A stretch of DNA of 64,000 nucleotides from the NCBI GenBank assembly GCA_951406725.2, contig OX597828.1, positions 6,448,001 to 6,512,000 on the forward strand, read 5' to 3'. Source of the DNA: Octopus vulgaris (Eukaryota). Made by a program: the position numbers and the translations under genes. The stretch's first letter is position 1; each line of letters opens with the position of its first letter. Positions 30,966-32,664 of this stretch are shown piece after piece. Under the pieces are notes generated by a model. That model saw only the letters and a list, made by a program, of their open reading frames with translations. It did not search any database and was not told the origin of the DNA.

Positions 30966-31289
30966 AATATATATATGTATATATACATAATATATATATA
31001 TATATATTTTAACAATTGAGGGTAAAATTAATTAATTATTAATCAATTTCACCAAGTATTCAGTCTGTAAAGGGACCATTTAAGGCGAATTCAAAATATT
31101 ACATTTTATAAAGGGCTTAGTAAAATAAATTACTTTGCCACATACTGAACTCATTAGAAATAGCAGCCAAAAAATTTTTTTAGCCAAATTCTAATACTTA
31201 AAGAAAATTTCTCTCAGATAGTGCTTACTCAGAATAGCCCACGAAGGTATGGGGGTAAAAACATTAAAAAATCACAAATGCAAAGGTTA

Positions 31290-31351
31290 TTTGAGAACGT
31301 ACGTTTCTAGATCAGCCAAATACAATTCGACATTTCTTTCGTCAGCCCAAA
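31290..31351 (-). ncRNA. Hammerhead ribozyme motif (copy 1 of the 564-bp unit)
   Basis: Reverse complement of 32112-32173. Confidence 0.65.
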
Positions 31352-32111
31352 ATTCCTTAATTCGGATTTGTAAACACTGAAAGTAGGAGCATACCCTTTT
31401 GGTGACTTTTCACCTCCGAAGATCCGTTCAGACTGACAGTGCCACCAAATTCAAAATATGCAAGCGAAGAATTTCTGCCCTCCCCTTTCCACCCACGTGG
31501 TCTAATCTAGCAAACACCATAATTTTATCGGTGAAAACCGAAGCATTAAACAGAGACAAATGAATTATAATTTCAACAATTGAGGGTAAAATTAATTAAT
31601 TATTAATCAATTTCACCAAGTATTCAGTATGTAAAGGGACCATTTAAGGCGAATTCAAAATATTACATTTTATAAAGGGCTTAGTAAAATAAATTACTTT
31701 GCCACATACTGAACTCATTAGAAATAGCAGCCAAAAAAAATTTTTTTAGCCGAATTTTTAGCAAAATAATTTATTTTACTAAGCCCTTTATAAAATGTAA
31801 TATTTTGAATTCGCCTTAAATGGTCCCTTTACATACTGAATACTTGGTGAAATTGATTAATAATTAATTAATTTTACCCTCAATTGTTGAAATTATAATT
31901 CATTTCTCTCTGTTTAATGTTTCGGTTTTCACCGATAAAATTATGGTGTTTGTTAGATTAGACCACGTGGGTGGAAAGGGGAGGGCAGAAATTCTTCGCT
32001 TGCATATTTTGAATTTGGTGGCACTGTCAGTCTGAACGGATCTTCGGAGGTGAAAAGTCACCAAAAGGGTATGCTCCTACTTTCAGTGTTTACAAATCCG
32101 AATTAAGGAAT

Positions 32112-32173
32112 TTTGGGCTGACGAAAGAAATGTCGAATTGTATTTGGCTGATCTAGAAACGTACGTTCTCAAA
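32112..32173 (+). ncRNA. Hammerhead ribozyme motif (copy 2)
   Basis: TTTGGG-CTGACGA-A-AG..GTCGAAT/ATTTGGC..CT-A-GAAA-CGTACG-TT-CTCAAA; 6-bp stem I, palindromic stem III. Confidence 0.65.
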
Positions 32174-32664
32174 TAACCTTTGCATTTGTGATTTTTTAAT
32201 GTTTTTACCCCCATACCTTCGTGGGCTATTCTGAGTAAGCACTATCTGAGAGAAATTTTCTTTAAGTATTAGAATTCGGCTAAAAAAAAATTTTTTTGGC
32301 TGCTATTTCTAATGAGTTCAGTATGTGGCAAAGTAATTTATTTTACTAAGCCCTTTATAAAATATATATATATATATATATATATATATATATATATATA
32401 TATATATATATATATATATACATATACATATATATATATATACATATATATATATATATATATATATATATATATATATATATATATATATATATATATA
32501 GATATAGATATATATACATATACACATACATATATATATATACATATATATATATATATAGATATATATACATATACATATATATATATACATATATATA
32601 TATACATATATGCATACATATATATGTATATTTAATATATATATATATATATATATATATATAT

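Follow-up and report, generated by a model that had tools for sequence, protein, structure and literature searches.

A 564-nt hammerhead-bearing repeat arranged in inverted arms within (TA)n: probable insertion of a retrozyme-type element by a Penelope-like reverse transcriptase

The best reading of the locus at 31011-32361 is a single young insertion: the reverse transcriptase (RT) and endonuclease of a Penelope-like element (PLE) would have copied a non-autonomous element of retrozyme type into a TA microsatellite, with priming on both strands; we put the probability of this reading at about 0.68. The locus lies in what we call the window, that is, the whole 64-kb stretch of DNA that was analyzed, and it is built from a repeat with a period of 564 nt that is seen in each of two arms. 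The features on which the argument turns, including a diverged relative elsewhere in the window, are as follows.

5557-5883, plus strand: diverged sister element, (TA)n on either side, hammerhead core at 5633
30967-31007, no strand: left (TA)n target tract
31011-31756, minus strand (hammerhead-sense): arm A, 746 bp, 1.32 units
31011-31574, minus strand: one full 564-nt unit, non-coding
31290-31351, minus strand: arm A type I hammerhead motif, with cleavage predicted between 31296 and 31295
31757-31760, no strand: inter-arm junction of 4 nt, uniting the 5′-truncated ends of arms A and B
31761 to ~32361, plus strand: arm B, inverted, 601 bp, 1.07 units
32112-32173, plus strand: type I hammerhead motif of arm B, predicted cut after 32167
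32302-32361, plus strand: 3′ module common to arm B and the sister family, from sequence comparison
32362-32666, no strand: right (TA)n target tract

Much of the geometry given in the initial annotation was borne out. It had described about 1.3 copies of a 564-bp non-coding unit over 31011-31756, then about 1.06 inverted copies from 31761, nearly identical to one another and set in (TA)n, and our figures are 1.32 units for the first array and 1.07 units, to ~32361, for the second, between the two tracts listed above. The unit has a GC content of 34%, and the longest stop-free frame, with the unit read in tandem, is 58 codons. Writing u for position within 31011-31574, arm A consists of u1-564 plus u1-180, and arm B, reverse-complemented, runs from u128 down to u1 and then from u564 down to u~93, with an outer end that blurs into TA. 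Measured against the first full copy, the other three partial copies carry 2, 2 and 4 substitutions, and one A/T homopolymer varies in length in two of those three. On the hammerhead strand the arms face outward: both RNA 3′ ends abut (TA)n, at u~1 for arm A and u~93 for arm B, and the 5′-truncated ends are central, where the 4 junction nucleotides plus their neighbors resemble, by eye, a short re-copy of u~168-180. No target-site duplication could be discerned on inspection of the locus sequence. Each arm, as had been noted, overruns one unit and runs past the predicted cleavage site, which was correctly placed after 32167, the position of U17 in the arm B hammerhead. The claim of a hammerhead in every unit stands in part: the type I motif with a palindromic stem III is there, but there are just two copies of it, one in each arm, lying on opposite strands 773 bp apart (31345 on the minus strand, 32118 on the plus strand). 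The partial second copies in both arms end before the hammerhead, and the locus has no two consecutive hammerhead-bearing units. Hence, with a single hammerhead in each arm and the two on opposite strands, the locus alone cannot release a unit-length (cut-to-cut) RNA.

Judged from comparison of related copies, the hammerhead is real at the level of structure and conserved, and self-cutting activity is predicted for it. The motif has the type I core CUGANGA...GAAA...UH with stems I and II, and its palindromic stem III is ACGUACGU. In arm B, stem I has 6 bp, the core reads CUGACGA/GAA, and stem II is bipartite, with a 3-bp helix, a 3x3 internal loop and a 7-bp helix, and an A.A mismatch at the base. 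The Watson-Crick 10.1-11.1 pair, usually G-C, is thus missing, the opposed bases being A.A in the unit, C.A in its sister and, in a third family, U.U. The axolotl hammerhead HHR_Amex2 tolerates a mismatch of this kind, U.U, at the stem II base (PMC7229834). A strict scan for the core, a palindromic stem III and a stem I of at least 6 bp returned 4 motifs in the 64-kb window versus 0 in 100 simulated windows. In a comparison of two sequences only, arm B (from which the structure was drawn) and the sister, all 15 of 15 pairs in stems I, IIa and IIb are kept, 6 of them via two-sided change, as against 30-57% of cells pairing in slid controls; the covariation score was attained by 6 of 500 shuffles, and simulated random substitution retains all pairs with P 1.6e-4. 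A three-way MAFFT alignment of the hammerheads was left out, its cores being misaligned. Common variants in public sequencing runs, at 31347 (stem I) and 31316 (stem II), change G.U to A-U. The 19-nt core is free of variants among the 40 of 88 variant rows listed, but not significantly so (P 0.26). Rfam gave no hammerhead match at the gathering score, nor any up to E=10; the motif folded alone does no better than its shuffles (z ~0); and a scan for the hammerhead motif in metagenome contigs, viral contigs and prokaryote genomes produced 0 matches. Of 9 predicted Xenopus retrozymes, 8 showed no cleavage in vitro (10.64898/2026.07.22.740005).

Two other candidates within the unit were rejected: an Rfam match to mir-2513 (E 4e-8, far below the gathering score), which is the central inverted repeat, and a further, minimal hammerhead at the inner CUGAUCUAGAAA, which is without G8-A9. 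In runs X1 and X4 a 6-nt deletion at 31317-31326 shortens the distal helix of stem II, and by eye the hairpin remains.

A compact fold of the unit is predicted for the hammerhead strand and is restricted to it. The z-scores on this strand are -4.3 linear and -3.7 circular, with 68% of the unit paired when circular, compared with -1.2 and -1.6 for the antisense. Control folds covered 14 of 53 eligible windows; 13 of the 14 had z between +2.9 and -2.2, and the fourteenth, at z -11.2, overlaps a microsatellite. In the circular ensemble the probability of pairing is 0.65-0.88 for stems I and II, against 0.02 for stem III in the monomer. Since stem III is unformed in the monomer and is palindromic, the hammerhead is predicted to act as a dimer in tandem transcripts, a dimeric model being described in the available text of PMC4209133. 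The RNA expected of a retrozyme, highly self-paired and with an accessible hammerhead, is what the predictions give.

The sister element at 5557-5883 has the hammerhead architecture, the 3′ module and the end phase of arm B. From the hammerhead through the end, 162 of 251 positions are identical; in the final 59 nt the count is 50 of 59, versus 56 of 102 just upstream. We take the 59-nt module (32302-32361), from this comparison, as a candidate RT-binding or initiation signal. The sister's (TA)n end falls at u~86-93, and arm B ends at the same phase. Five further ends come from contigs of public runs, in which loose ends abutting (TA)n lie at u556, 563, 9, 9 and 102 among 24 of 255 loose-end rows. 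All 8 observed (TA)n ends (arm A at u1, arm B at u~93, the sister and the five contigs) are on the RNA 3′ side, and they form two AT-rich clusters, one of them inside the 59-nt module shared with the sister, although the ends are few and the contig ends are taken from those 24 of 255 rows. The initial annotation had held the start phases to be arbitrary, and this does not survive: arm B ends where the sister ends, and the contig junctions with (TA)n cluster at both arm ends. Nor does its step from arbitrary phase plus overrun to a circular RNA, since the ends cluster at two sites and the pattern is the one published for PLEs (PMC8557442, in the part consulted). What can be retained of its recently active non-autonomous retroelement is a young, non-coding, hammerhead-bearing, multi-copy insertion, likely moved by a PLE, minus the circle-specific argument. 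At its start the sister has a 24-bp hairpin that is nearly perfect (5560-5614, z -8.6) and is ambiguous between a natural stem and a tiny inverted arm.

Beyond the window, 20 of the 24 sequencing runs listed contain the stretch wholly or partly, under four organism codes, and none of them is recorded as RNA. Four runs were compared, all as contigs: two DNA-type (organisms A and B), with 3353 and 2199 matching contigs, and two guessed to be RNA, with 56 and 23. In all four the unit is covered in 30 of 30 bins, and head-to-tail joins, by which a contig “goes back” on the unit, are present in DNA-type and RNA-type runs alike. The element is a multi-copy, head-to-tail, non-coding family. Single contigs attain a depth of ~3000 next to others at ~20, and the family may thus number hundreds of copies or more, with the proviso that summed contig depth does not equal copy number and that the higher depth at 31565-31735 was set aside. 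Alleles at 31224, 31403 and 31435 are common to both arms, and each makes up less than 3% of the X1 depth; such shared rare alleles therefore argue for one event from one donor, bearing in mind that the species of the window may differ from that of the runs. Among the 4 joints listed in the runs none is a strand-switch joint, and hence the inverted arm is seen clearly only at 31011-32361. As to where the family leads, the longest loose ends among the 24 of 255 rows (127 and 96 nt) start, by eye, like the sister family, and the remainder appear by eye to be indel variants or (TA)n; no exit into an ORF is apparent in these rows, in which the contigs are short. Runs X2 and X6 contain a subfamily that departs from the unit at 31738 with sister-like letters.

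The case for a PLE rests on how closely this arrangement resembles what such elements leave behind. PLE insertions are described, in the accessible part of PMC8557442, as partial tandems, often with an inverted 5′-truncated copy, a one-sided tail of 30-40 nt and a (TA)n bias, and pairs of hammerheads on opposite strands ~100-700 bp apart were noted as early as 2014 (PMC4209133, likewise in part), a range that the spacing here slightly exceeds. Moreover, PMC11167929 reports that the purified Poseidon protein of the anole, acting on AT-rich DNA, cuts both strands and extends them, that it uses two internal RNA start sites downstream of the hammerhead, and that hammerhead cleavage is not needed. 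The locus fits PLE insertion of this kind step for step, with two outward arms as from two primings. In the scheme that we propose, arrays would be transcribed on the hammerhead strand; a PLE protein would bind the conserved 3′ module and cut both strands of the (TA)n tract; and each DNA end would prime reverse transcription at a preferred AT-rich internal site, u~93 or u~1, the ~92 nt between these two start sites being the analogue of the PLE “tail”. Each cDNA would then extend for more than one unit on a template longer than a unit, which would be a tandem transcript left uncleaved (~55%) or else a ligated circle (~45%), and the two truncated cDNA ends would be joined head-to-head. The arm starts are 194 and 285 nt downstream of the predicted cut. 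Because both arms cross the cleavage site and exceed one unit, the template must have been longer than a cut-to-cut linear monomer, but as templates the circle and the uncleaved tandem transcript fit equally. The copy differences do not separate the two: u55 agrees with a heterogeneous dimer and u176 does not. None of the 179 frames of the 64-kb window matched GIY-YIG or a PLE family in Pfam, and the sole Pfam match above cut-off among them is a LINE RVT_1.

Other explanations have to be weighed against insertion by a PLE. The strict form of the circle idea, in which a 564-nt circular RNA is copied by rolling reverse transcription from arbitrary start points, would account for two arms that both pass the cut site and are each longer than one unit, and it is in keeping with the compact circular fold and with the circles produced by mussel, coral and axolotl retrozymes (PMC7229834, in the part available). 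Run X2, RNA by guess, has two contigs with a 30-nt overlap and a depth of 68-73 that together tile ~480 of the 564 nt; this hints weakly at a single dominant transcript, or else reflects DNA. We nevertheless consider this form unlikely: the (TA)n ends are grouped at two sites, each arm has just one hammerhead, and a PLE accepts uncleaved RNA in vitro (PMC11167929, same portion). Joins in RNA prove nothing about circles, because head-to-tail joins occur in the DNA-type runs as well. It is quite improbable that the locus is pseudo-LTR (pLTR) debris of an autonomous Penelope-like element with its ORF elsewhere. Such debris would show the PLE-like insertion pattern and the palindromic stem III, and a link to an ORF could escape notice, the public contigs being short and no listed piece spanning the stretch, but the unit closes on itself head-to-tail with no frame above 58 codons, whereas a pLTR belongs to an ORF-bearing unit and not to a self-closing one, and by eye the longest loose ends in the 24 of 255 rows begin like the sister family.

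Twin priming by LINEs yields the same outward-facing geometry, and the same element could in principle have been mobilized by a non-PLE LINE through twin priming on a tandem transcript, with an endonuclease that targets microsatellites. A LINE RT is present in the 64-kb window, and Dong-R4 and RTE LINEs are listed as recently active in Octopus vulgaris in the available part of PMC13282606. This explanation is very unlikely in our estimation: at the locus there is no fixed 3′ end, arm poly(A) tail or target-site duplication, and the type I hammerheads and tandem organization link retrozymes to PLEs in what was accessible of PMC7229834 and 10.64898/2026.07.22.740005. Hardly credible are an assembly artefact and a fold-back, at the DNA level, of a satellite whose hammerhead is vestigial. 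An AT-rich homopolymer hairpin does lie close to the junction, and such structures are known to hamper assemblies (PMC8557442, part), but 4 substitutions separate the arms, each outer end coincides with ends used independently at other loci, and the RNA fold is strand-specific and covarying.

On the features tested, the element belongs with the metazoan non-LTR retrozymes and is not an autonomous PLE. Like those described by Cervera and de la Pena in 2020 (PMC7229834) and by Li, Clavereau and Pollet in 2026 (10.64898/2026.07.22.740005), as far as the text at hand goes, it is non-coding, low in GC (under 50%, with no ORF), multi-copy and head-to-tail, with a unit that has one type I hammerhead, a palindromic stem III and a highly self-paired fold, and as in their case a dependence on PLEs is proposed. 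Its 564 nt are longer than the 150-450 nt of the former study and lie within the 51-972 nt of the latter. Under the definition in the accessible text of Li et al., the locus itself is not “active”, because it has no two consecutive hammerhead-bearing units. HHR_Amex2 of the axolotl is likewise type I, with U.U at the base of stem II, and it cleaves, better as a dimer (PMC7229834, in part); the 564-nt unit has A.A at that position and the sister C.A, and beyond the 3x3 internal loop stem II goes on as a second helix. The EN+ PLEs (Penelope/Poseidon, Neptune and Naiad; PMC8557442, PMC4209133 and PMC11167929, each in part) are alike in the partial tandem, the inverted 5′-truncated arm, the unequal ends, the (TA)n target, the lack of a visible target-site duplication and the position of the hammerhead upstream of the RT starts. 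They differ in having an RT/GIY-YIG ORF, absent here within the window, and in a tail of 30-40 nt, as against a one-sided offset of ~92 nt. Their minimal hammerheads, in the same partial sources, have a conserved G10.1-C11.1, which is absent here, where stem I is 6-8 bp and stem II bipartite. Non-autonomous Chlamys elements such as MRC1 are also PLE parasites without coding capacity, and they too show pLTR-like partial tandems and insert head-to-tail, but they are green-algal, mostly without canonical hammerheads, and their partners are known via 3′ similarity (PMC8557442, in the part seen).

Several components of this argument have precedents. In the portions of the papers at hand, the cDNA-overrun argument is already in print (PMC4209133, PMC7229834), and circular intermediates, cDNA longer than a unit and dependence on PLEs have already been proposed for retrozymes (PMC7229834, 10.64898/2026.07.22.740005). 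Neither of those two retrozyme papers, in the text consulted, describes inverted arms, targeting of (TA)n or a 3′ module in common between families. A literature search on hammerheads or retrozymes in octopus or cephalopods brought up no account of the 564-nt family. The O. vulgaris repeat paper (PMC13282606) contains neither “hammerhead” nor “ribozyme” (0 occurrences in the part available) and reports 31 recently active Penelope-like families.

Which enzyme moves animal retrozymes, and whether it copies the circle, has so far been argued via co-occurrence and pLTR similarity (PMC7229834, 10.64898/2026.07.22.740005), and a 2020 review (PMC7761336) finds in metazoan retrozymes no conserved motif pointing to a partner. 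With the element class and the rolling-circle idea already published, what the 564-nt family adds is the imprint of PLE insertion together with a candidate partner signal. More speculatively, and with rather more doubt than confidence, we suggest that a group of retrozyme families in this lineage may make ~564-nt circles, carry a variant hammerhead with a mismatched, bipartite stem II, and use the 59-nt 3′ signal for recognition by a PLE enzyme and its priming on both (TA)n strands. If true, the 59-nt signal would supply the partner-recognition motif so far missing from animal retrozymes, and the locus would constitute direct structural evidence for PLE-driven retrozyme insertion from circles. 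This short module, conserved in the sister, and the pair of start sites lend themselves to testing in the existing in vitro PLE assay (PMC11167929).

The surroundings of the locus contain other repeats. Directly to the left of arm A, between (TA)n tracts, is a MITE-like element (30791-30962) with 47-nt terminal inverted repeats that are 89% complementary. To the right of the (TA)n, the segment 32741-33291 has 177-nt inverted arms, 96% complementary and 197 nt apart; it was considered as a PLE end and rejected, being without a Pfam match and without a hammerhead motif. At 2690-2724 a 35-nt match to u530-563 (86%, E 2e-4) is possibly an old remnant of the family.

Further hammerheads and retroelements are scattered through the window. 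A third element at 6775-7270 on the minus strand, ~500 nt long and between (TA)n tracts, carries a hammerhead-like motif with its core at 6892, a palindromic stem III, a long stem II with U.U at the base, A at position 17 and a stem I of 4 bp; by BLAST it has no similarity to the unit. Another motif, at 14371-14420 on the plus strand (core at 14377), is of the short PLE-like type and lies just after an (AAT)n tract. With five motifs, from as many as four families, in 64 kb, the genome would seem to be rich in hammerheads. The LINE reverse transcriptase frame at 49750-51358 on the minus strand (RVT_1, E 6e-32), which continues in a second frame, we take to be CR1/L2-like from its matches; its best identity is 50% among the 120 matches listed, of which the named ones are from birds, reptiles, an amphibian and a fluke, so that it says nothing about the host lineage. 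The microsatellite and SINE content of the window looks octopus-like. Broken frames at ~23640-25900 have RT-like motifs by eye, with no Pfam match, and resemble an R4/NeSL-type non-LTR element, and at 57809-58160 a 184-nt unit is present in 1.9 tandem copies and resembles a tRNA-derived SINE.
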